A stretch of 10,162 nucleotides of DNA from a virus. The stretch is from UHGV virus genome UHGV-0247313; one strand, given 5' to 3'. This document shows positions 1 through 10,162 of this stretch, in pieces. The notes below the pieces were generated by a model, which saw only the letters and a list, made by a program, of their open reading frames with translations, searched no databases and was not told the origin of the DNA. Within the stretch, counting starts at the first letter, position 1. Each line of letters begins with the position of its first letter. A program made the translations under genes and the position numbers.

Positions 1-241
1 TGATGGCATCGGGCTGGTTATCCCGCAGCCACAGCAAAACCGGGGCCATCAGCAGATTCTGGTCGCCGCTGAAATCCTCAATCACCGCGTTCAGGGTGTA
101 ACGGTACTCCCACGACATGGAGCTGGCCCCCGTGGCAACCAGCGAACCGTTATCCACAAACAGATGCAGTTTGTCCGGGTTATTGCGGACATAAGGCACC
201 GCTTTATTGAGGGCGTGGCGCAGGGATTGTGGTTTGTTCAC
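1..241 (-). CDS. R: Tail completion protein gpR-like, 5' part only (runs off the left edge)
   Basis: Minus-strand frame open from a GTG at 241..239, preceded by AGGAG 7 nt upstream, to position 1. Translation VNKPQSLRHALNKAVPYVRNNPDKLHLFVDNGSLVATGASS...LLWLRDNQPDAI resembles P2 gpR as I recall it. It overlaps the lysC 3' end, as in P2. Not in the ORF track because it has no stop in the window. Confidence 0.6.
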   Translation of the reverse strand, partial: MNKPQSLRHALNKAVPYVRNNPDKLHLFVDNGSLVATGASSMSWEYRYTLNAVIEDFSGDQNLLMAPVLLWLRDNQPDAI

Positions 242-494
242 TGTTTCGCTCCTGACACGCAATAATCATGTCCACTTTGTCTGCACAGACCGCCCAGGCG
301 GCCTCCGTTTCATCCAGCAACGCGTTCAGATCACCGTTAGTGCGCGGCGTTGCCTGATCCAGCCGACACGGCGTCACTCGCGGACAACCACTGACGGTAA
401 GCTGTACCTCCGGTGAGTGCCGGACGTTCCCGCAGCCGGATAATGTCAGCAGGCAAAGGAGTATCAGCCCAGCGGCGTAAATCCTCGTTCTCAC
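204..494 (-). CDS. lysC: o-spanin (Rz1-like outer-membrane lipoprotein), LysC-like
   Basis: 96 aa with a lipoprotein signal and lipobox (LLTLSGC). Starts inside lysB in another frame, the typical spanin arrangement. Confidence 0.8.
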   Translation of the reverse strand: MRTRIYAAGLILLCLLTLSGCGNVRHSPEVQLTVSGCPRVTPCRLDQATPRTNGDLNALLDETEAAWAVCADKVDMIIACQERNSEQTTIPAPRPQ

Positions 495-765
495 GTTTCA
501 GTTCCTCGATCCGGTGTTGTCGTTGTCTCAGCAGTGCACTGGTCTGTTCTGCTTCGGCATAGAGCCGCGCCTGCTCCCGGTTATTGGTTTCAGTCAGAAT
601 GGACAGGCTGATAAGCTGGCTGTTTTTCTTCGTCAGTTCCTGCGCTTTACTTTTCAGCGCCGCGCGCTGCGTTTCGATGGTGTGGCTGGCGCTGTTAAGC
701 CGCCACGACTGCCAGCCCAGCGCAACGAGTGCCAGCGCCACCACTACTGCCAGCGCACGCGTCAT
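337..765 (-). CDS. lysB: i-spanin (Rz-like), LysB-like
   Basis: 142 aa with an N-terminal transmembrane helix (ALAVVVALALVALGW) and a charged coiled-coil-like remainder. AAGGAG lies 8 nt upstream of the ATG at 765. Contains the embedded lysC. Confidence 0.8.
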   Translation of the reverse strand: MTRALAVVVALALVALGWQSWRLNSASHTIETQRAALKSKAQELTKKNSQLISLSILTETNNREQARLYAEAEQTSALLRQRQHRIEELKRENEDLRRWADTPLPADIIRLRERPALTGGTAYRQWLSASDAVSAGSGNAAH

Positions 766-925
766 AGTCCAGCTCCTTTAAGGCACCAGGCCATCTCCCG
801 CGCACGGCGGTTATCCAGCCCCTGATTAAACACACCTTTTACATAAACCCAGCGCGGCAACTGTCGGCACGCATCTGCCCAGCGCCGCTGATTGAGCAAT
901 TTCACCAGTGTGGAACTACAGGCAT
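766..925 (-). pseudogene. 3' remnant of an upstream lysis-module gene (lysA position), left by a deletion
   Basis: A minus-strand frame stays open through ...RRWADACRQLPRWVYVKGVFNQGLDNRRAREMAWCLKELDY* and stops 1 nt past the lysB start. It has no plausible start and abuts the O 3' end. Confidence 0.3.
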
Positions 926-1654
926 TGCCCGTTGCTGCTTCTGCAGAGCAGACTCCAGTTCAGACAGGCGTTCTTCCTGCTCAGACAGAGATTTTTCGGT
1001 TCGCGCGCTCAGGTTTTGCTGCTCAGTGGCGACCAGCTCCACGGCCTTATGCACATCAGAGAACCGGGCGTCATCGGACTGCTCTTTTTTGGTGAACAGC
1101 GCCGTGACGCGGGAAAACAGGGACGGTTTGTCGTCCTGGACTTCCTCCAGTTCGATCACCGTTTCCTCTGCAGCGGTAAAGAGATTGGCAGGATTCTGCT
1201 TGCGGTTTGCCAGCGGGTTATGGGCTGCACTGGCGCTGAATGTCAGCATTTCAGTGCCCAGACTGGCAGGGTCATCAGTGGCAGCCAGGCCGACCAGGTA
1301 GGCTTTGCCCGTATCAGCGAACTTCGGGCTGACTTCCATAGAGGTGAATAATTTCTGGCCTTTTTTCACCAGTTCCACCAGGGACTCCGTTGGCTCAACG
1401 TCGGCATACAGCGCCATCTTGCCTGCCAGCGGACCTTCCGTGATTTCCTCAGCAAACAGCGCCGTCACCTTGCCGTAGCGGTTAAAGGTGCTGTCCGGCA
1501 GATAAGACTTGATGTGCTCAAGGTTAATCAGCGCGGTATACACCGCCGGGTTGTAGCTGGCTGCCATCTGTTCCAGCCATTCACGCTGGATTTCGCGTCC
1601 GTCGGTGGTGGCACCTTCCACCCCGATGCGAAAACGCTTTGCTTTCACTGTCAT
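902..1654 (-). CDS. O: Capsid scaffolding protein gpO-like, probably 3'-truncated with a junction-derived C-terminus
   Basis: 250 aa. FRIGVEGATTDGREI...INLEHI...YLVGLAATDDPASLGTE...SDDARFSDVHKAVE matches the P2 gpO family. GGAG lies 8 nt upstream of the ATG. Shorter than P2 gpO as I recall it (about 284 aa); the last residues (RAMPVVPHW) look junction-derived. Confidence 0.85.
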   Translation of the reverse strand: MTVKAKRFRIGVEGATTDGREIQREWLEQMAASYNPAVYTALINLEHIKSYLPDSTFNRYGKVTALFAEEITEGPLAGKMALYADVEPTESLVELVKKGQKLFTSMEVSPKFADTGKAYLVGLAATDDPASLGTEMLTFSASAAHNPLANRKQNPANLFTAAEETVIELEEVQDDKPSLFSRVTALFTKKEQSDDARFSDVHKAVELVATEQQNLSARTEKSLSEQEERLSELESALQKQQRAMPVVPHW

Positions 1655-1732
1655 GAGCCGTGCTCCGTTAAAAAAAACTTACTGGAGCCTTATGGTTGCG
1701 GTGATGGGGGTAGTGAAACAATGCGCGGTATT

Positions 1733-1750
1733 TGTACCGACAACCACACA
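1733..1750. promoter_or_regulatory. Candidate Ogr/Delta-type late-activator site (TGT-N12-ACA) in the divergent O/P late promoter region
   Basis: TGTaccgacaaccacACA in the 142-bp O-P intergenic region. P2 late promoters carry TGT-N12-ACA dyads centred near -55. Confidence 0.4.
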
Positions 1751-1796
1751 AACCGCAGGCGGGGAAAGCCTTCATTCAAGGCTGTAGGTTTGTGCC

Positions 1797-3563
1797 ATGA
1801 ACACCACACTGACACCCGCAGATCTCGATCCCCGTCGGCAGGCCATGCTGCTGTACTTTCAGGGATACCGCGTAGCCCGCATTGCTGAAATGCTGGGCGA
1901 GAAAGTTGCAACCGTTCACAGCTGGAAAAAACGCGACAAGTGGGGTGACTATGGGCCGCTGGATCAGATGCAGCTCACCACCGCCGCACGCTACTGCCAG
2001 CTCATTATGAAGGAGCACAAAGAAGGGAAAGATTTCAAAGAGATTGACCTGCTGGCGCGCCAGTCGGAGCGCCATGCGCGGATCGGCAAGTTTAACAATG
2101 GCGGCAACGAAGCCGACTTAAACCCTAACGTCGCCAACCGCAACAAAGGCCCGCGTCGTCAGCCGGAAAAGAACGTTTTCACCGATGAACAGATTGAGAA
2201 GCTGGAAGAAATCTTCCATTCCTCCATGTTCAACTACCAGCGCCACTGGTGGGAAGCCGGAAAAACCAACCGCATCCGCAACCTGCTGAAGTCACGCCAG
2301 ATCGGCGCGACCTTCTATTTTGCCCGTGAAGCCCTGATTGACGCCCTGCTAACCGGGCGTAACCAGATTTTCCTTTCCGCCAGCAAGGCACAGGCCCACG
2401 TCTTTAAGCAGTACATCATCGACTTCGCCAAAGAAGTGGAGGTGGAGCTGAAAGGCGATCCGATAGTGCTTCCTAACGGGGCCACGCTGTACTTCCTCGG
2501 CACCAATGCCCGCACGGCCCAGAGTTACCACGGCAACCTGTATCTGGATGAATATTTCTGGATACCGAAATTCCAAGAGCTGCGCAAAGTGGCTTCCGGT
2601 ATGGCTATTCACAAAAAATGGCGACAAACCTATTTTTCCACGCCATCCAGCCTGACACACAGTGCTTATCCGTTCTGGTCCGGTGCGCTGTTCAACCGTG
2701 GGCGCAACAAAGCCGACAAGGTGGACATCGACCTGTCCCACAGCAATCTGGCCCCCGGCCTGCTGTGCACAGACGGGCAATACCGCCAGATAGTCACCGT
2801 GGAAGATGCGGTGCGCGGCGGCTGTAACCTGTTCGACCTCGACCAGCTACGCATGGAGTACAGCCCGGACGAATACCAGAACCTGCTGATGTGCGAGTTC
2901 GTGGACGATCTCGCGTCCGTGTTCCCGCTCAGCGAGCTGCAAGCGTGCATGGTGGACAGTTGGGAAATCTGGACCGACTTTCATGCACTGGCCCTGCGCC
3001 CGTTTGGCTGGCGCGAAGTGTGGATCGGTTATGACCCGGCAAAAGGTACGCAGAACGGCGACAGTGCCGGATGCGTGGTGGTGGCACCGCCAGCCGTGCC
3101 GGGTGGTAAGTTCCGCATTCTTGAGCGTCACCAGTGGCGCGGGATGGACTTCCGCGCCCAGGCTGACGCCATCAAAAAACTGACCGAGCAGTACAACGTG
3201 ACCTACATCGGCATCGACTCGACAGGTGTCGGCCACGGGGTTTACGAGAACGTGAAAGCGTTTTTTCCAGCCGTCCGGGAGTTTGTCTACAACCCCAACG
3301 TTAAAAACGCCCTGGTACTCAAGGCCTACGACATTATCAGTCACCGTCGTCTGGAGTTTGACGCCGGACACACCGACATAGCGCAGTCATTTATGGCAAT
3401 CCGTCGCGCCACCACCGCCAGCGGCAACCGCCCAACCTATGAAGCCAGCCGCAGCGAAGAAGCCAGCCATGCCGATCTGGCCTGGGCAACAATGCACGCA
3501 CTGTTTAACGAACCGCTGCAGGGCGAGTCCGCCAATACCAGCAATATTGTGGAGATTTTTTGA
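1797..3563 (+). CDS. P: Terminase large (ATPase) subunit gpP-like
   Basis: 588 aa, the size and family of P2 gpP. Divergent from O. Its stop overlaps the portal start (TGATG). Confidence 0.9.
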   Translation: MNTTLTPADLDPRRQAMLLYFQGYRVARIAEMLGEKVATVHSWKKRDKWGDYGPLDQMQLTTAARYCQLIMKEHKEGKDFKEIDLLARQSERHARIGKFNNGGNEADLNPNVANRNKGPRRQPEKNVFTDEQIEKLEEIFHSSMFNYQRHWWEAGKTNRIRNLLKSRQIGATFYFAREALIDALLTGRNQIFLSASKAQAHVFKQYIIDFAKEVEVELKGDPIVLPNGATLYFLGTNARTAQSYHGNLYLDEYFWIPKFQELRKVASGMAIHKKWRQTYFSTPSSLTHSAYPFWSGALFNRGRNKADKVDIDLSHSNLAPGLLCTDGQYRQIVTVEDAVRGGCNLFDLDQLRMEYSPDEYQNLLMCEFVDDLASVFPLSELQACMVDSWEIWTDFHALALRPFGWREVWIGYDPAKGTQNGDSAGCVVVAPPAVPGGKFRILERHQWRGMDFRAQADAIKKLTEQYNVTYIGIDSTGVGHGVYENVKAFFPAVREFVYNPNVKNALVLKAYDIISHRRLEFDAGHTDIAQSFMAIRRATTASGNRPTYEASRSEEASHADLAWATMHALFNEPLQGESANTSNIVEIF

Positions 3564-3979
3564 TGGGAAAGAGTAAGAAAAACCGCGCTGCGGCGACGAA
3601 CCAGATCCAGCATAAAAACCAAACTTCAGCCGAAGCATTCAGCTTCGGTGATCCCGTTCCTGTTCTGGACCGCCGCGAATTACTGGACTATGTGGAATGC
3701 GTAAAGATGGACCGCTGGTATGAGCCACCCGTAAGTTTTGACGGACTGGCGCGAACATTCCGCGCCGCCGTACACCACAGTTCACCGATTGCAGTAAAGT
3801 GCAACATTCTGACCAGCACCTACATCCCTCACCCGCTGCTCAGCCAGCAGGCGTTTTCACGTTTTGTGCAGGACTATCTGGTTTTTGGTAACGCCTACCT
3901 GGAGAAACGCACGAACCGATTCGGTGAAGTTATCGCCCTTGAGCCTGCGCTGGCAAAATACACCCGACGCGGATTAGAC

Positions 3980-4030
3980 GAACAGCGTGGCGGACTCGTT
4001 GAGCAGGGCGGATGGGATGGCAGAAAGATA
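3980..4030. repeat. Inverted-repeat arm, exact reverse complement of 4161..4211 (51 bp)
   Basis: Base-by-base comparison. A further 9-bp pair is 3971..3979 ggattagac and 4151..4159 gtctaatcc. Confidence 0.95.
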
Positions 4031-4160
4031 GCCGGGCAGGCCGTAGATCTCCTGGTTGATGTCCGGTTCCATCAGATGAAAAATGCTGCCTTTCGTGAAC
4101 TGATACGGCTGCGTGGTCATGCCGTATTGCACAAACCAGTAGGTATCTAGGTCTAATCCC

Positions 4161-4211
4161 TATCTTTCTGCCATCCCATCCGCCCTGCTCAACGAGTCCG
4201 CCACGCTGTTC
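4161..4211. repeat. Inverted-repeat arm in native orientation, partner of 3980..4030
   Basis: Encodes in-frame native portal sequence YLSAIPSALLNESATLF. Confidence 0.95.
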
Positions 4212-4657
4212 CGCCGAAAGTATTACATTAACGGTAGTCATGCAGGCTTCATCATGTACATGACCGATGCCGCGCAGAACCAGGAAGATGTGAACAACCT
4301 CCGCAATGCGATGAAAAGTGCCAAAGGCCCTGGCAACTTCCGCAACCTGTTTATGTACTCGCCTAATGGTAAAAAAGACGGACTTCAGATTATCCCGTTG
4401 TCAGAAGTCACAGCGAAGGATGAGTTTCTGAATATCAAGAACGTGAGCCGTGATGACATGATGGCGGCACACCGCGTGCCGCCGCAAATGATGGGAATTA
4501 TGCCTAATAATGTCGGGGGGTTTGGGGATGTGGAGAAGGCTAGCAAGGTATTCGTAAGAAACGAATTGATGCCCCTGCAGAAACGATTGCAGGAACTAAA
4601 TAACTGGTTGGACGAAGAAGTGCTCAATTTTTCAACCTATGAGCTTTAGTTTTAAAA

Positions 4658-4685
4658 CGAAGACCATTAGGTCTTCGCTTTATTT
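4658..4685. terminator. Bidirectional intrinsic terminator between convergent Q and the retron RT gene
   Basis: 8-bp stem cgaagacc/ggtcttcg with loop atta. T-rich tracts on both sides (ctttattt on plus; ttttaaa on minus). The RT stop codon sits in the loop. Confidence 0.6.
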
Positions 4686-5629
4686 AAAGGGTTCTTTCCA
4701 TATTTTTTTTCTAATTTGCTAATATAAGTTATTAATCTCCTATGGCTTTTTGAATCCACACTTAAAATAAATGACAACCATCCCCTAACGTGTTCTATCT
4801 CAGAAGACTTACCGCAAAATATATGATGTATCTTTGCTCTAATTTCTTTATATTTTTCTCTACCTATCCCAACTTTCTCTTGTGAAATAACTAAACCTGT
4901 AACTTTCCTCTGACTACGAGGCCCACTAATACAAGTTTTTTTTGAGTTAATAACCAATCCTTCACTTGGGATTATAGAAAATAAAAAATCACGTGCTTTA
5001 ACAACCTTTTTCATAGACTGTGCAGATAAGGTGAGATCATCGGCATATCTCGTATATATCAAGCCCCGACTACCTGCATAACCCTGAATACGATAATCAA
5101 GTTTAGAACATATTAGATTAGCTAATTTAGGTGATGATGGAGCACCTTGTGGTAGCAGATTTTTATAACAACATATTTTTGTCAAAACTGAAGATATTAG
5201 TCGATTATAACCAAGAGAATGGAACACTCCAAAAACTTTGTTAGCAGTTAAACTTGGGAAAAAATCCTCCAAATCAATATTCAGTATAAAGTTTGCCCCA
5301 ATATGCGGGGTAGCATTATTCAAAATAGATTGGTGCTTTTCAAATCCAATAGAAAAAGGAGATGACGACAGTTTATCTAAAATGTTACGTAGAACCCATC
5401 CTTGTAAGGCTTTAAGTTCTCGAGAAGGTTGGTAAATGGTTCTCATTCTCTTCTCTGGGCCTTTCTTTTCTACAGTGTAGATCCTATAGCGAAAATCAGC
5501 TGTATAGATTAACAACCGAAGTGTTTCAACAGATATGCGAGTCGCCTTAGACATGTCATGCAAATTGTTCATGACAGGTAGGCCGAGATTTCTCAATCTA
5601 AAAGTGTTCAAATATTCAGCGGATTTCAT
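4667..5629 (-). CDS. ret: Retron reverse transcriptase, Retron-Eco1 (Ec86)-type
   Basis: 320 aa with RT motifs: NIDLEDFFPS (motif A), LPQGAPSSPKLANL (motif B), YADD (motif C). Directly downstream of the msr-msd element. AT-rich unlike the flanking phage genes. Confidence 0.95.
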   Translation of the reverse strand: MKSAEYLNTFRLRNLGLPVMNNLHDMSKATRISVETLRLLIYTADFRYRIYTVEKKGPEKRMRTIYQPSRELKALQGWVLRNILDKLSSSPFSIGFEKHQSILNNATPHIGANFILNIDLEDFFPSLTANKVFGVFHSLGYNRLISSVLTKICCYKNLLPQGAPSSPKLANLICSKLDYRIQGYAGSRGLIYTRYADDLTLSAQSMKKVVKARDFLFSIIPSEGLVINSKKTCISGPRSQRKVTGLVISQEKVGIGREKYKEIRAKIHHIFCGKSSEIEHVRGWLSFILSVDSKSHRRLITYISKLEKKYGKNPLNKAKT

Positions 5630-5635
5630 GAAAGT

Positions 5636-5804
5636 TGCGCACCCTTACGTCAGAAAAAACGGGTTTCCTGGTTGGCTCGGAGAGCATCAGGCGATGCTCT
5701 CCGTTCCAACAAGGAAAACAGACAGTAACTCAGATTCAATGCAGGATGCCGAAACAACATCCAGAGGTTGACCTTAATGATAAACCTCTCGCTAAGGGTG
5801 CGCA
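5636..5804 (-). ncRNA. msr-msd: Retron msr-msd non-coding RNA (msDNA template), Ec86-type
   Basis: Flanked by 12-bp inverted repeats: tgcgcaccctta at 5636..5647 and taagggtgcgca at 5793..5804. Internal 10-bp perfect msd stem ggagagcatc/gatgctctcc at 5679..5702. Lies immediately upstream of the RT start. Matches the Ec86 msr-msd as I recall it. Confidence 0.85.
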
Positions 5805-6715
5805 TACGGAATCTTATCATAGTTAAATGTTGATTTTCTACGGTTTTCAAAATTCATAATCTCAAGCCGCAATCGGTCAAGTGTCTTTCTATCAAAGACG
5901 CTCCTAACATAGCTAGCCCCCAAAGCAGTGACCTGATAACCATCAGTCATTTGAAGTATTTTTCGTTCATTTATTAGACGAGAAACAACGGATCTAACAA
6001 TAATTTTAGATAAAACATCATCTTGCTTTATCGCTTTAAAAGCTAGTTCACACAGTGTGCGGTAGTTGACACTATCCAGTAAATAGATACAAGGCAATAG
6101 AAACCGCTCTGCGTATAATATATTTCCAATATCTTTTGATACTTTATTTTCTTTCCTAACCTTCTTAATAGATGCCATTAATTTTTTATATAATCGTAAT
6201 TTTCTGGCAACATCAATAGATGAATCACACATTTCTTTTAGTTCATTTGAACTACAACGCAAAACAGATTTTGAATTAAACTTACGCAACAGGCGAACAG
6301 GACCATAGTTAATAAAGCTACGTTTTGATTTAAATTTTGCATCTTGAATGCAAATCAACTTTCTCCTTAAGTTTTCATTATTAGAGAACGCACCAAGCTC
6401 TGTGAAAGACCCCGGACTTTCAGGAAATAAAATTATTACATCGACAGCTTCAGCCAGAATATTTTCTAAACTTAAAAGGCTATGCTGCCCTTGACCAGCC
6501 AAAAGATCATCAAATAGATCTTCTGGATAAAATATATCAACATCACTGAACTTTGCTAAAAATTGTGATAATTGATGACGCCAAGATTGATGATTAGCAA
6601 CGTCACCACCACATAGAAAAATGGTTATTTTAATATTAGCTCCTCGATAGAAGCCTTTCTTTGTGAGATGTCCTATAAGCTGTTGTTGCTGCTCATCGGT
6701 AAATTTTTTATTCAT
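5792..6715 (-). CDS. Retron effector: nucleoside deoxyribosyltransferase-like (NDT-like) N-terminal domain with a C-terminal putative DNA-binding domain
   Basis: 307 aa. N-terminal Rossmann-like motifs (ITIFLCGGD; VIILFPESPGSFTELGA). Upstream of and overlapping the msr a1 repeat. Same AT-rich composition as the RT gene. Confidence 0.8.
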   Translation of the reverse strand: MNKKFTDEQQQQLIGHLTKKGFYRGANIKITIFLCGGDVANHQSWRHQLSQFLAKFSDVDIFYPEDLFDDLLAGQGQHSLLSLENILAEAVDVIILFPESPGSFTELGAFSNNENLRRKLICIQDAKFKSKRSFINYGPVRLLRKFNSKSVLRCSSNELKEMCDSSIDVARKLRLYKKLMASIKKVRKENKVSKDIGNILYAERFLLPCIYLLDSVNYRTLCELAFKAIKQDDVLSKIIVRSVVSRLINERKILQMTDGYQVTALGASYVRSVFDRKTLDRLRLEIMNFENRRKSTFNYDKIPYAHP

Positions 6716-7187
6716 AATCTCCCCGCTTTTTTTTCTACTTTATACATCAAGTTATGAATAGATCCAATCTCCATACCACATGGCGCGCGCTCGTATCCCC
6801 GCCACGCCTGCCCGCTTTATGCAGTGGTTTTCATGCACATGCATAACATGAGCAAAAGCCCGCCAGTTCTGGCGGATCTGAGCAAAGACGATCCTCAATC
6901 GATCATGCGATTTCATGCAGCATAGTCATGCACTGTCAAGGAAGTGAAAATCCGTATCTGAATGGCCACTTGAAAAACGGATCATACGGGTTTACAAAGA
7001 TGAATGTTCGCTGTGAACGGGAAGCGGAAGTTAACTTTCAGATAACATAATCCATATGCACGAGAACCTCTAAAATAGAATGGGACACCTAAGCGGGGTA
7101 CTTACAACGATTCTTTCCATATTCACAGTTAACACTCTGTTTGGCGTATTTTTATTCAAATAGCAAACACCAATAAAAGGAGTTTCC

Positions 7188-7523
7188 ATGAACAATATTC
7201 CCCCTATACCACAGTTAGGAATTTATGTCTCAAAAATCGATCCCACCCTACGTATCACTGTAACCGATGTTGATATTGTTGATGGTGAGGATGATTCTCC
7301 TGATGATGAATTGTTTTATTTAGTCCACTGGATCGAGGGGGAAGATGAAAGTGATATGACAGCAATGGGATTTGAGCTAGACCCAGTAGAGTGGCAGGCT
7401 TTCGTTGAATCTGAGCAATTAGTGTTTGAGCGTGATCCGTACATGGATTCAATCCCCGAAAATTCAAACTTGGCAAAGATTCGGGATTTTCTCATGAAGA
7501 CTAAACAGAATGATCATTCGTAA
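7188..7523 (+). CDS. Hypothetical small, strongly acidic protein (111 aa)
   Basis: AAGGAG lies 7 nt upstream of the ATG. About 26 Asp+Glu against about 8 Lys+Arg by manual count. No family recognised. Confidence 0.6.
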   Translation: MNNIPPIPQLGIYVSKIDPTLRITVTDVDIVDGEDDSPDDELFYLVHWIEGEDESDMTAMGFELDPVEWQAFVESEQLVFERDPYMDSIPENSNLAKIRDFLMKTKQNDHS

Positions 7524-7677
7524 GTGTAAGCATCCATCAGGAAAATGGTTTTGTAAGTGAATCATCAACTTTTAGAGAGTCTCAGACACTCCCACTTCTG
7601 CTTCTGACACAAAGCGGACGATCACTTATCAAAATAACCGCCCACCTTACGCCTTATTTCACTCATTGCCCAAACTA

Positions 7678-7707
7678 GCCCCCATCAGAATGAATCCTCC
7701 TGGGGGC
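7678..7707. terminator. Possible weak hairpin terminator downstream of the DinI-like gene
   Basis: 7-bp stem gccccca/tgggggc with a 16-nt loop. Weak T-tracts on both sides. Confidence 0.2.
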
Positions 7708-7715
7708 AACATTTC

Positions 7716-7949
7716 TTAATGCAGCCAGCTGTCGTCCTCCCACACCTTCTGCATAATTTTCATCACTTGTTTTCTTTCTTCATCCAGTTGCAGTCCGGTT
7801 AGTTCCACACCGTTAGAGCTACCTTTGCGAATGCGAATTACCGTTTTGGGATACAGGGGGCGCAGATTGCGGTAAAGCTCGGATTCAAGGGCGTCCAGGG
7901 TAGACTGGCTAATCTTCTGCTCTTTATCGATCATTATTTCAATGCGCAT
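7716..7949 (-). CDS. dinI: DinI-like protein (SOS-response family)
   Basis: Start chosen at the internal ATG 7949..7947, preceded by AGGTGA with a 5-nt spacer. MRIEIMIDKEQKISQSTLDALESELYRNL...QKVWEDDSWLH has DinI family length and pattern. The track ORF 7716..8021 is a spurious 5' extension. Confidence 0.8.
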   Translation of the reverse strand: MRIEIMIDKEQKISQSTLDALESELYRNLRPLYPKTVIRIRKGSSNGVELTGLQLDEERKQVMKIMQKVWEDDSWLH

Positions 7950-7959
7950 AAAAGTCACC

Positions 7960-8148
7960 TCAGCTGATGACATCCATTGAGCGGTTGTATTCGTGGCTTC
8001 TGATTTTTGCCATGAGTTCATCAGTCAATTCAGAAACCCACTGCAGAGCCAGCCCCTTCTCTTCATCACTACACTCACTAGCCGCTACAAGCTTAAGAAA
8101 AAAATCAATGCGCTGGAGCTTCAAAGACTCCAAAAAATAGTCCTGCAT
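7960..8148 (-). CDS. Hypothetical 62-aa protein, first gene of the LexA-box operon
   Basis: AGGAGG lies 4 nt upstream of the ATG. Its stop overlaps the dinI-like RBS, suggesting coupling. No family recognised. Confidence 0.5.
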   Translation of the reverse strand: MQDYFLESLKLQRIDFFLKLVAASECSDEEKGLALQWVSELTDELMAKIRSHEYNRSMDVIS

Positions 8149-8188
8149 CTTTCCTCCTATGACACCAAAACAATACTGTATACATAAC

Positions 8189-8208
8189 CACTGTTTATAT
8201 TTACAGTA
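8189..8208. promoter_or_regulatory. LexA box (SOS operator) upstream of orf62 and the DinI-like gene
   Basis: caCTGTttatatttACAGta fits the CTGT-N8-ACAG consensus with an AT-rich spacer, about 40 bp upstream of the orf62 start. A second half-site tactgtata lies at 8174..8182. Confidence 0.65.
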
Positions 8209-8300
8209 TATAATAATCTTACTGATGTAAAACGTTTTTTTACGTTCATCGGCCTGATATGCCTGGTATTATTAAGAGCACGAATTGTCAACCCGCGTAA

Positions 8301-9746
8301 TTAATACAGGTTCCGCCACTTATCATCTTCCTTCAGACGCTGGTTCCGATAGAAGATACGCAGGCCTGCTCCTGACGGAATACTGCCGCCGCGAAGGAGC
8401 AAATCGACTTCTTTCTCGCTGCCATCAAATCCCCTGGACTTCAGTTCATAGACGAGCTGCTGTCGCTGATGGTCTGTAATTCGCTGTTTGTAGTCTTTAC
8501 GCCGTTTCGGTTTCACCTGGCGTAACCTTGCAGCCAGTTCCCGGCGCTCTTTTTTGCTCATACTGTGCAGGTAATTGTGCAACTCCTTGTCATTCATACG
8601 GGTAATATCCGTTCTGGAGTCCCCATCAGCTGATTTGTCTTTCCCTTGTTGGTTCAAATTTTCAGCAAGGGGACAGTTATTGCCACGAGTCCAAGGGGCG
8701 CAAGCGCCCTGGTCGGCTGCCGCCTCCTGAACGTCAACGGCCTTACGAACCATTTTCCACTTCACCGCATGAGTGCAGATCTTGCCCTCTGCAATGGGTG
8801 ACCAGATGCCATAAATACGAATACCGTGATCGCCATATGCGGTCGGTTCTTCGTTGATTTCATAAGCAGTTCTGATGAGGTGATATTTGCGGGGAACCAG
8901 TACGCCGCCCTGCTTCATGATGTAGGTGGCAAAACAACCAGCATCAGCAGCAGCCAGGATTGCATCAAGACGCGGGTTATCCAGTACCGGCGCACCTGCT
9001 TTTTTGTCACCCTGTTGCCTTGCCGCCTGACCAGCCAGCAATCGCAGTTCACGGTAAGCCTGACGCCCCGGAATGCCAAAGAAGCGGAATTGCTGAACAC
9101 GATGCAGAGACGCCCAGGCATTAACGTATTCAGCGTTATCACGCAGGGATTTACCCGTTTCCTTGCTGATCTCCCCAGCCAGACCACGCCCGTCAATGTT
9201 CTTACTGATGTATTTCGCGATATAGCTTGTTGGCGTACCTTTGCGCGGGTTTATCAGCTCAGACTTAAAGCGTGGTCCCGTGTTATTGCCCAGCTCCTCG
9301 CGGTCTTCACGGATGGCAAACTTACGCAGTAATGCAGTGATGGCGCGGCGGTCTTTTTTACGCATGAAACACATGAGATGCCAGTGCACAGTACCGTCAT
9401 GATGCGGCTCAGCTACCGCACCTGCAGCAACACGCCCGATCTCTGCGGTTGCACTCATGACGTAATGTGGCAGTTTCTCTTTTGCCACCTCATTAATCGG
9501 TACGCATGGCAGGCAGTGAATCTGAGCCAGAAAACCATCTACCAGCGTTGAATCTTCAGTCAGATCGGTAAGCAGCCAGATTTCTGGTGCGGTTAATAAA
9601 TGAGGTTGCGCTGGGTTCAACTTGTTCCGCAGAATCTGCACATTCATGCCAGCACGTTCTGCCAGTTGCACCAGGTTGTGGCGCAATGCGAATGCACGAC
9701 AGGCTTCATCAAAATGTGGATGTTTGGAAACTTGGTAATCAAACAT
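8301..9746 (-). CDS. A: In-frame fusion: CII-like regulator N-terminus (about 110 aa) joined to a P2 gpA-like rolling-circle replication nickase C-terminal region
   Basis: N-terminus [25 protein letters not shown]...[29 protein letters not shown] matches the phage CII (186 CII/CP76-like) family. It then switches to [15 protein letters not shown] (HUH motif) and [12 protein letters not shown] (paired catalytic tyrosines). The HUH motif sits near residue 120 here; in P2 gpA as I recall it sits far further in. Start taken at ATG 9746, as in the plus-strand copy at 10087. Confidence 0.75.
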
Positions 9747-9805
9747 GGTCAATGCCTCTGATGTATTTCAGAATCGAACTAATTAAGGTTTAGATTGCAT
9801 TCTGA
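9671..9805. repeat. Left arm of a 135-bp perfect inverted repeat (partner 10028..10162)
   Basis: Exact reverse-complement match over the full length, limited by the window end. Holds the cII-like start, the intergenic region and the last 9 codons of the 73-aa ORF. Confidence 0.95.
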
Positions 9806-9832
9806 TCATCATTAAACGAGGAATGTTGCATC

Positions 9833-10054
9833 ATGAGACCTAACATTTCAATCACTCTTACCACCCCTCATGTGACTATTGAACGCTATAGCGAGCTGAC
9901 AGGGCTATCCATCGATACCATCAATGACATGTTGGCTGATGGACGCCTTATCCGTCACCGACTGCGCAAAGATAAAAAACGCGAAAAAGTGATGATCAAC
10001 ATAGCAGCAATGACCGTTGATGCGCTTTCAGAATGCAATCTAAACCTTAATTAG
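9833..10054 (+). CDS. Small helix-turn-helix DNA-binding regulator (Apl/Cox-like?)
   Basis: 73 aa with an HTH-like segment ([23 protein letters not shown]) and a basic tail. Sits directly upstream of the plus-strand cII-like start, as apl/cox precedes cII/B in 186/P2-type early operons. Confidence 0.45.
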
Positions 10055-10162
10055 TTCGATTCTGAAATACATCAGAGGCATTGACCATGTTTGATTACCA
10101 AGTTTCCAAACATCCACATTTTGATGAAGCCTGTCGTGCATTCGCATTGCGCCACAACCTGG
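10028..10162. repeat. Right arm of the 135-bp inverted repeat (partner 9671..9805)
   Basis: Reverse complement of 9671..9805. It may extend past the window end. Confidence 0.95.
10087..10162 (+). CDS. CII-like regulator, 5' end only (second, plus-strand copy; runs off the right edge)
   Basis: ATG at 10087 with AGAGG upstream. [25 protein letters not shown] is identical to the N-terminus of the minus-strand fusion gene. Confidence 0.65.

Follow-up and report, generated by a model that had tools for sequence, protein, structure and literature searches.

The 10,162-nt viral sequence UHGV-0247313, referred to here at its full length as the window, is best explained overall, with a probability of roughly 85%, as the middle part, 10 kb in length, of a defective P2/186-family prophage already known from the Escherichia coli B lineage, in the form found in BL21. 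It carries a complete copy of retron Ec86 (Retron-Eco1), together with two genuine deletions and two inverted duplications that are most likely artifacts of sequence production, arising from either a chimeric template or misassembly. An initial annotation, made from the nucleotide sequence alone, had described a decaying prophage and regarded its pattern as fitting selective retention of the defense cargo. The portrayal of a defective prophage with an intact retron, large terminase gene, spanin genes and LexA-box operon was borne out by annotation and family matches; selective retention of the cargo found no support.

Alignment of the window to the BL21(DE3) genome revealed 100% identity across positions 1-3979 and 4160-9805, as well as across both inverted blocks. 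Indeed, when the whole window was compared by megablast to 5,426 complete E. coli genomes, matches at 100% identity, in two pieces over positions 1-9805, were obtained with BL21(DE3), BL21, C41/C43, BLR, NEB Express and further B-lineage strains. In the BL21(DE3) annotation, this DNA is part of a P2/186-like prophage of about 20 kb flanked by ybjL and rcdA, with the gene content reading, from left to right, R, lysC, lysB, a remnant of the endolysin gene, a GPO scaffold gene of reduced length, P, the portal gene Q and the two retron genes. Beyond these come a 111-aa open reading frame (ORF), the DinI-like gene and a 62-aa ORF, then pieces of the replication gene A and of cII and, finally, the cox/apl-like gene and cI. 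No tRNA gene was found in the window, and the attachment site falls outside it. The element, its Ec86 retron, the position beside cos and the defective state are already documented, with the B-lineage prophage having been named 'Rybb' and identified as the carrier of retron Ec86 (PMC3032704).

The gene layout of the P2/186 family was recovered in that Q, P, O', K', lysB, lysC, R and cos are present, partly deleted, and syntenic with phage 186 and with intact relatives, as considered for the divergent Q-P and O-N-M-L head clusters, the lysis cassette, R/S and cos beside Q. The set of genes required for particle formation (N, M, L, X, Y, K, FI, FII, E, T, U, D and A) is, in turn, incomplete. Lost are N, M, L, X, the holin gene and most of K, the N-terminal half of A in BL21 and, outside the window, FI through U and the N-terminal part of D. 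As such, the prophage is defective.

Deletion 1 (Table 1) corresponds to positions 13198-16343 of the prophage of strain 20A24 (L004), and removed 111 nt from the 3' end of O, the entire N, M, L, X and holin genes, and the 5' two thirds of K. Originally described as extending from O to lysB, it is a real deletion beginning in O that ends instead in the endolysin gene, with a 171-nt fragment of K having been kept beside intact lysB. A 200-mer spanning the joint was found in exactly 44 complete genomes, all of the B lineage, and in no others. The genome labeled 'E. coli strain C, cow's milk' (NZ_CP029371.1) contains the O'::K' joint and the retron at 100% identity, such that this locus is B-type despite the label. 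The same is true of AS19-RrmA- (NZ_CP027430.1), AS19 being what we take to be a B derivative.

Deletion 2, which generated an in-frame CII::A fusion, spans 3,369 bp, with a short, imperfectly repeated sequence at the joint (window 9410-9421) in which 4 nt match exactly. Its joint, again sought with a 200-mer, was seen in only 32 genomes, all of the BL21 sub-lineage, confirming the fusion noted in the initial annotation as a genuine deletion. In REL606 and 11 other B genomes the region is intact, the REL606 early region comprising full-length A, dam, traR, DUF2732, DUF5347, fil and cII. Given that only BL21-type genomes carry deletion 2, the event must have occurred after the BL21 and REL606 laboratory lines split. 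It is conceivable, though weakly so, that SOS derepression leads to expression of the CII::A chimera from pR and that the chimera is active in its own right. Outside the window, a third deletion, of about 6.9 kb, extends from D to the tail-fiber invertase gene; its joint shares 8 nt, and it is present in REL606 and BL21(DE3), the two B genomes compared. Also outside the window, the B integrase comprises 338 aa rather than 350 aa; the last 10 or so nt of its gene and the following segment of about 480 bp at the int/rcdA side, which contains a 110-aa ORF with no family match, are without counterpart in 20A24 (L001, the BL21 locus, 24035-24515). This difference may reflect a further lesion or an insertion at the prophage end.

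In the explanation preferred here, a small number of deletions, arising by illegitimate recombination between short direct repeats, disabled the prophage, these being O-K (all B strains), D-invertase (REL606 and BL21(DE3)) and cII-A (BL21 sub-lineage only). The BL21-specific cII::A deletion shows how young this decay is, with REL606-type B strains retaining the whole early/replication region.

The initial annotation had counted at least four independent lesions. Of the four that it named, two, the O-K and CII::A deletions, are genuine, whereas the inverted duplications in the portal gene and in the cII region, although present in the window, are private to this sequence and probably artifacts. 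The perfect inverted arms, of 52 nt in the portal gene (3980-4031 and 4160-4211) and of 135 nt at apl/cII, where they reach the window end, cannot arise by chance. The second block contains an apl/cox-like gene (9833-10054, here on the plus strand), as well as the 5' end of cII in a second, inverted copy (10028-10162). Neither block was found in BL21, in REL606, in four wild prophages or in any of the 5,426 complete genomes, none of which covered 80% or more of window 3880-4320 around the portal block. Likewise, Logan contig L012 at the portal block and the 50-kb contig L008 at the apl/cII block presented the BL21 arrangement, two of the three novel joints, 3979/3980 and 9805/9806, had no exact match in scans of three contig collections (viral, genome and metagenome), and the 195-aa truncated portal product was without record among the called genes of a public collection.

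The joints of the inverted blocks are, moreover, blunt, sharing 0, 0 and 1 nt, as compared to 2, 4-12 and 8 nt in the genuine deletions; no restriction site common to these joints was seen upon inspection by eye. Both inversions present the same geometry, with the sequence proceeding forward, jumping some 170-220 nt ahead onto the other strand and then reading back, as is typical of amplification or chimeric-read artifacts, such as chimeras from multiple displacement amplification. Since two rare events of the same type would need to have occurred within 10 kb of otherwise mutation-free DNA, an artifactual origin is considered most likely. Logan contigs starting inside the portal gene, retrieved by look-up of the 131-aa ORF, at first seemed to support a break point there, yet all proved collinear with BL21. 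Several independent assemblies (L008-L011), BL21-collinear throughout, break within a 10-nt span in the portal gene corresponding to window 4244-4253, one possibility being that k-mers are shared there with other P2-like portal genes in the same samples.

It is, by comparison, unlikely that the inverted duplications are genuine mutations private to a BL21-derived isolate, generated by replication template switching and representing further steps of decay. Such an origin would agree with the exactness of both structures (100% identical arms of 52 nt and at least 135 nt), with the classic duplication-inversion-duplication (dup-INV-dup) layout of the first block, known from replication-based rearrangements, and with the fact that no gene needed by a defective prophage is affected. 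That dup-INV-dup structures can arise in vivo by replication template switching weighs against the artifact interpretation, as does the basis of that interpretation, which is inferred from absence elsewhere and from the odd architecture that the two blocks share. Private mutation is, however, difficult to reconcile with the absence of the blocks from all complete genomes, the 44 of the B lineage included, as well as from the Logan contigs and three contig collections, with the unrecorded portal product, with the blunt joints and with the coincidence of two such events, the second of which extends to the window end. Furthermore, the jump-and-read-back geometry resembles amplification or chimeric-read artifacts. 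Were template switching nonetheless responsible, the prophage of a laboratory strain would have been caught gaining lesions through a mechanism for which, where no quasi-palindrome existed beforehand, E. coli offers few documented cases. With an artifact being the preferred explanation, confirmation from reads would be needed before two of the four lesions are regarded as biology. The initial annotation had itself named assembly artifacts as grounds for abandoning its account; for the two inverted duplications, absent from all otherwise identical DNA, matters come close to that.

Retron Ec86 is a standard genome-editing tool. In the window, the sequence features of a type II-A retron were found, namely, a reverse transcriptase (RT) of the retron clade, an adjacent msr-msd RNA gene with a1/a2 repeats and an NDT-like effector in the same cassette. 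RT scored 287.6 bits against the NCBIfam model retron_St85_RT (cut-off 235), while the effector scored 678 bits against PDB 7v9x_C and 176.6 bits against STM3845_fam (cut-off 100). Rfam searches of the whole window at the gathering threshold and of positions 5500-5950 at E-values up to 10 returned no retron RNA family, only chance microRNA and leader matches. As such, the non-coding RNA was confirmed by folding instead. The predicted msr-msd fold (-80.6 kcal/mol, z = -8.7) comprises a 12-bp a1/a2 stem, two msr hairpins and a long msd hairpin. One of the msr hairpins consists of an 8-bp stem with a UUU loop, as described for msr-Eco1, with RT-Eco1 recognizing such a hairpin (PMC6868368). The module is compact, with the stop codon of the effector gene overlapping a1 of msr. 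In RefSeq, the RT start is inconsistently assigned, giving a 295-aa protein (WP_226347323.1; L001 16606-17493) in BL21, REL606 and 20A24; the experimentally used and structurally solved Ec86 RT is of 320 aa, starting at window 5629, and is so annotated in JNE082640.

Production of multicopy single-stranded DNA (msDNA) and anti-phage activity are known from literature on identical proteins (PMC6868368, PMC12673091). RT uses the msd portion of the msr-msd RNA as the template for msDNA (PMC12673091, summarizing Wang 2022, Carabias 2024 and Wang 2024). The RT-msDNA complex serves as antitoxin, binding the N-glycosidase effector and holding it in filaments, until modification of the msDNA by a phage Dcm methylase releases NAD(P)+ hydrolysis and infection is aborted; retrons thus behave as tripartite toxin-antitoxin systems (PMC12673091).

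The retron region was detected in 48 complete genomes, namely, the 44 of the B lineage and those of four wild isolates, with its chromosomal location being the same in all. In 20A24 (NZ_CP147044.1), it lies in an apparently complete prophage of about 35 kb that differs from window 1-3979 at 2 positions. In neither 20A24 nor VG1046-3E9 is any particle-formation gene flagged as a pseudogene, with only a fil fragment being so flagged in the latter, while the nearly complete prophages of JNE082640 and FDAARGOS_433, with one and a few flagged genes, respectively, carry the same retron. Because the wild prophages with the retron are apparently intact, the retron is, as far as sequence can tell, ordinary cargo of live-looking phages. 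Across five lineages, the RT genes differ by 0-5 nt and the effector genes by 0-1 nt, as compared to up to 3-6% for P and Q, which points to a recent spread of the cassette. The wild 20A24 and VG1046-3E9 prophages could serve for study of the retron within the phage to which it naturally belongs and which may be inducible.

That the B prophage still has the retron, P, lysB/lysC and the SOS operon would be as expected from very young, random deletions, with no selection for defense cargo being needed. DNA missed by the deletions is still sequence-perfect. Indeed, retained genes of the B prophage, whether related to defense or not, lie 0-2 nt per gene from their 20A24 counterparts, with neither frameshifts nor stops, as revealed by Nei-Gojobori counts. 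When three non-overlapping random deletions of the observed sizes were simulated in a 35-kb prophage, the retron was spared in 41% of the trials and all four of the features described as kept in 7%, the latter being a set chosen after the fact.

Selective retention or domestication, whereby protection against phages leads the host to preserve the retron, and possibly the SOS module, as the prophage decays, is accordingly considered improbable. In its favor, all 44 B-lineage genomes carry the retron intact and without sequence differences, Ec86 is experimentally supported as a defense system (PMC12673091), and what was lost through the three deletions served lysis or killing (capsid, holin/endolysin, fil, replication and tail), with none touching the retron. 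Those 44 genomes, however, represent one clone and so count as a single observation, chance alone spares the retron at the frequency given above, and wild strains carry it in apparently intact prophages. Many non-defense genes are equally intact, not only P, Q and the spanin genes but also, beyond the window, those for the baseplate and tail fibers, R, S, ogr, cI and int. The retained genes show no point decay and, as deletion 2 is younger than the BL21/REL606 split, there was too little time for selection to sort genes. The comparison of nonsynonymous to synonymous substitution rates (dN/dS) of retron and structural genes, proposed in the initial annotation, was performed by the Nei-Gojobori method and, with 0-5 substitutions, had no power. 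In sum, the data do not support retention of cargo beyond chance, or purifying selection on it amid backbone decay, as sought in a domesticated prophage. The caution that selection cannot be judged from one sequence was well placed.

Random sparing may, nonetheless, not be the entire story. Because the retron resembles a toxin-antitoxin module, loss of RT or msd with the effector left in place may be selected against, introducing some retention bias. Addiction as the full explanation, in which RT-msDNA is the antitoxin of the effector, deletions clipping RT or msd are lethal, those sparing the module or removing the toxin survive and no defense benefit is required, is in keeping with the tripartite toxin-antitoxin behavior of retrons and the compactness of the module, yet has little probability, given that the data do not distinguish it from chance and that deletions of the whole module would still be viable.

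Table 1. Features of the window, in order of position.
Feature	Position	Strand	Basis and remarks
Tail-completion gene R (P2 gpR homolog), N-terminal part	1-241	-	BL21 L001 11810-12241 'phage tail protein'; PF06891 P2_Phage_GpR; 3' end beyond left window edge
lysC (Rz1-like spanin), intact	204-494	-	Pfam LysC E=6e-16; RefSeq lysC; identical to 20A24
lysB (Rz-like spanin), intact, 142 aa	337-765	-	NCBIfam TIGR03495 phage_LysB E=1e-52; identical to 20A24
Endolysin K, C-terminal fragment, 171 nt, left by deletion 1	762-932	-	PHROG endolysin E=1e-18; RefSeq pseudogene 'glycoside hydrolase, missing N-terminus'
Truncated capsid scaffold/protease O', 250 aa	902-1654	-	Pfam Phage_GPO 2-236 of 268; PHROG 73 5-253 of 287; nt 1-723 align with wild-type O
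Deletion 1 joint	932-933		3,146 bp lost, 2 nt shared; blastn against the intact 20A24 prophage (L004)
Large terminase/ATPase P, intact, 588 aa	1797-3563	+	Pfam Terminase_5/6N/6C; 2 nt from 20A24
Portal gene Q, broken in the window	3563-4649	+	195-aa ORF 3563-4150 and 131-aa 3' ORF 4254-4649; one intact 341-aa gene in BL21
Window-specific inverted block in portal gene	3980-4159		Reverse complement of BL21 L001 15971-16150, replacing L001 15980-16098; dup-INV-dup
Terminator-like hairpin directly past Q; left edge of retron insert	4658-4677	+	Positional counterpart of 186 tW
Retron Ec86/Eco1 RT, 320 aa	4667-5629	-	PDB 7v9u_A, 8qbk_A 1-320 to 1-320, 712 bits; PADLOC RT_II-A E=7e-128; NCBIfam retron_St85_RT
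msr-msd non-coding RNA gene	5636-5805	-	a1 5793-5804; a2 5636-5647; msd hairpin arms 5664-5688 and 5693-5717; inverted repeat I4
Retron Ec86 effector (NDT-like N-glycosidase), 307 aa	5792-6715	-	PDB 7v9x_C, 8qbk 1-307 to 1-307; PADLOC NDT_II-A E=3e-94; NCBIfam STM3845_fam
cos cohesive-end core GGCGTGGCGGGGATACGAG (minus strand)	6790-6808	-	Aligned to phage 186 end joint, 67 nt at 79% identity
Terminator-like hairpin beside cos	6859-6876	-	At position of 186 t95b; assigned by position, annotated t95b not aligned
orf111, acidic 111-aa protein, second cargo slot of hotspot	7188-7523	+	PHROG 17127 (unknown function); PF26332 DUF8087; no PADLOC, NCBIfam or PDB match
DinI-like gene, 77 aa	7716-7949	-	PHROG 189; 41% identity to residues 71-145 of 186 Tum
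orf62, first gene of LexA-box operon	7960-8148	-	PHROG 698 (unknown function); strong Shine-Dalgarno
LexA box TACTGTAAATATAAACAGTG	8189-8208	-	Placed like the LexA site of 186 promoter p95
In-frame CII(1-~112)::A(C-terminal ~374 aa) fusion ORF, 481 aa	8301-9746	-	Joint at 9410-9421
Window-specific inverted block at apl/cII	9806-10162		Reverse complement of L001 21610-21966, following L001 21744; runs into window end

Examination of the individual genes confirmed P, lysB, lysC, RT, the effector gene and orf62/DinI-like as uninterrupted ORFs without internal stops, while qualifying other parts of the initial annotation. Of the good ribosome-binding sites reported, strong Shine-Dalgarno sequences precede lysB, O', the effector gene, orf111, orf62 and the DinI-like gene, with those of P and RT being weak. 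The terminase is intact only insofar as gpP is concerned, the gene for the small/endonuclease subunit M having been deleted. Similarly, both spanin ORFs are complete, yet the holin gene is gone, as is most of the endolysin gene. The first 241 aa of O' are those of O, with the tail of the protein reading into the K fragment.

The retron occupies a region (4650-6750) across which G+C content drops from about 55% to about 34%, as expected of foreign cargo. As judged from cos and the terminator-like hairpins, it fills the gap between the portal terminator and cos, namely, the cos-proximal cargo hotspot of P2-like phages. No match to a 19-mer taken as the phage 186 cos was found in the window at up to 3 mismatches, cos having been located by alignment to the actual ends of 186. 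The hotspot between gpA and gpQ is reported to hold retrons (Rousset et al., 2022; PMC9122126), and the title of Dodd and Egan (1996), as cited in PMC6868368, agrees with the placement seen here. In related phages, Abi/AIPR genes are found at this position. Among INPHARED phage records, none with the Ec86 retron was found.

Additional variable loci were noted in this phage group. The very acidic orf111, located in a slot between cos and the DinI-like gene, is also found at L004 22539-22874 and L005 22538-22873, with the slot being occupied in relatives by a 176-aa ORF (JNE082640) or by three ORFs of 333, 359 and 227 aa (FDAARGOS_433), all unannotated. These ORFs could be further defense or anti-defense cargo. 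Outside the window, the tail cluster of B, 20A24 and JNE082640 is split between V and S by an oppositely oriented DUF6216 gene (L001 10623-11429; L005 10343-11143), and VG1046-3E9 encodes a TIR-domain protein at the same position, which looks like another cargo hotspot of the group. A third variable locus lies between cI and int, where wild prophages carry genes for a P-loop NTPase, an AAA ATPase or two hypothetical proteins (L002 32068-33399; L005 29677-31665; L004 29741-31446) and B has only a 63-aa ORF.

The LexA box contains the sole CTGT-N8-ACAG site in the window (8191-8206), with 0.10 such sites being expected by chance. Since it adjoins orf62 and the DinI-like gene on their upstream side and lies between cos and gene A, as does p95-tum in phage 186, it is reasonable to assume that the two genes form a LexA-controlled operon. 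The products of this operon would presumably act as an SOS-induced antirepressor and an SOS modulator. BLASTP revealed no detectable similarity between orf62 and the N-terminal part of Tum.

Comparison with phage 186 (Eganvirus, NC_001317) revealed the same gene order (W/Q-P and, divergently, O and beyond), cos core and terminators beside cos, as well as an operon under LexA control located between A and cos and an early operon, apl-cII-...-A, that faces cI. At the same time, where 186 presents about 145 bp between cos and tW, the window contains the 2.1-kb retron; at the position of 186 orf97 lies orf111, on the other strand; and Tum, a single 146-aa protein in 186, is represented by a 62-aa ORF and a separate DinI-like gene resembling the C-terminal half of Tum. 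The attachment site likewise differs, with 186 using ileY. Relative to the E. coli B prophage ('Rybb') of REL606 and BL21(DE3), the window shares the ybjL/rcdA site and the O'::K' deletion, matches BL21 in the cII::A deletion and differs in the two inverted duplications (3980-4159 and 9806-10162). The prophages of 20A24 and VG1046-3E9 are found at the same site with the same retron (0-1 nt different) but, at about 35 kb as opposed to about 20 kb in BL21, retain all head, lysis, tail and replication genes. The lysB, lysC, R, S, V, J, I, orf111 and DinI-like proteins of 20A24 are identical to those of B, whereas the immunity region differs, with cI/apl being about 73-80% identical. Finally, the retron matches Ec86/Retron-Eco1 (type II-A; PDB 7v9u, 7v9x and 8qbk-8qbm) from end to end, with no difference detected, and its position makes the window an instance of the cos-proximal hotspot of P2-like phages, the old/tin locus of P2, in which variable cargo is carried between gpA and gpQ (PMC9122126).

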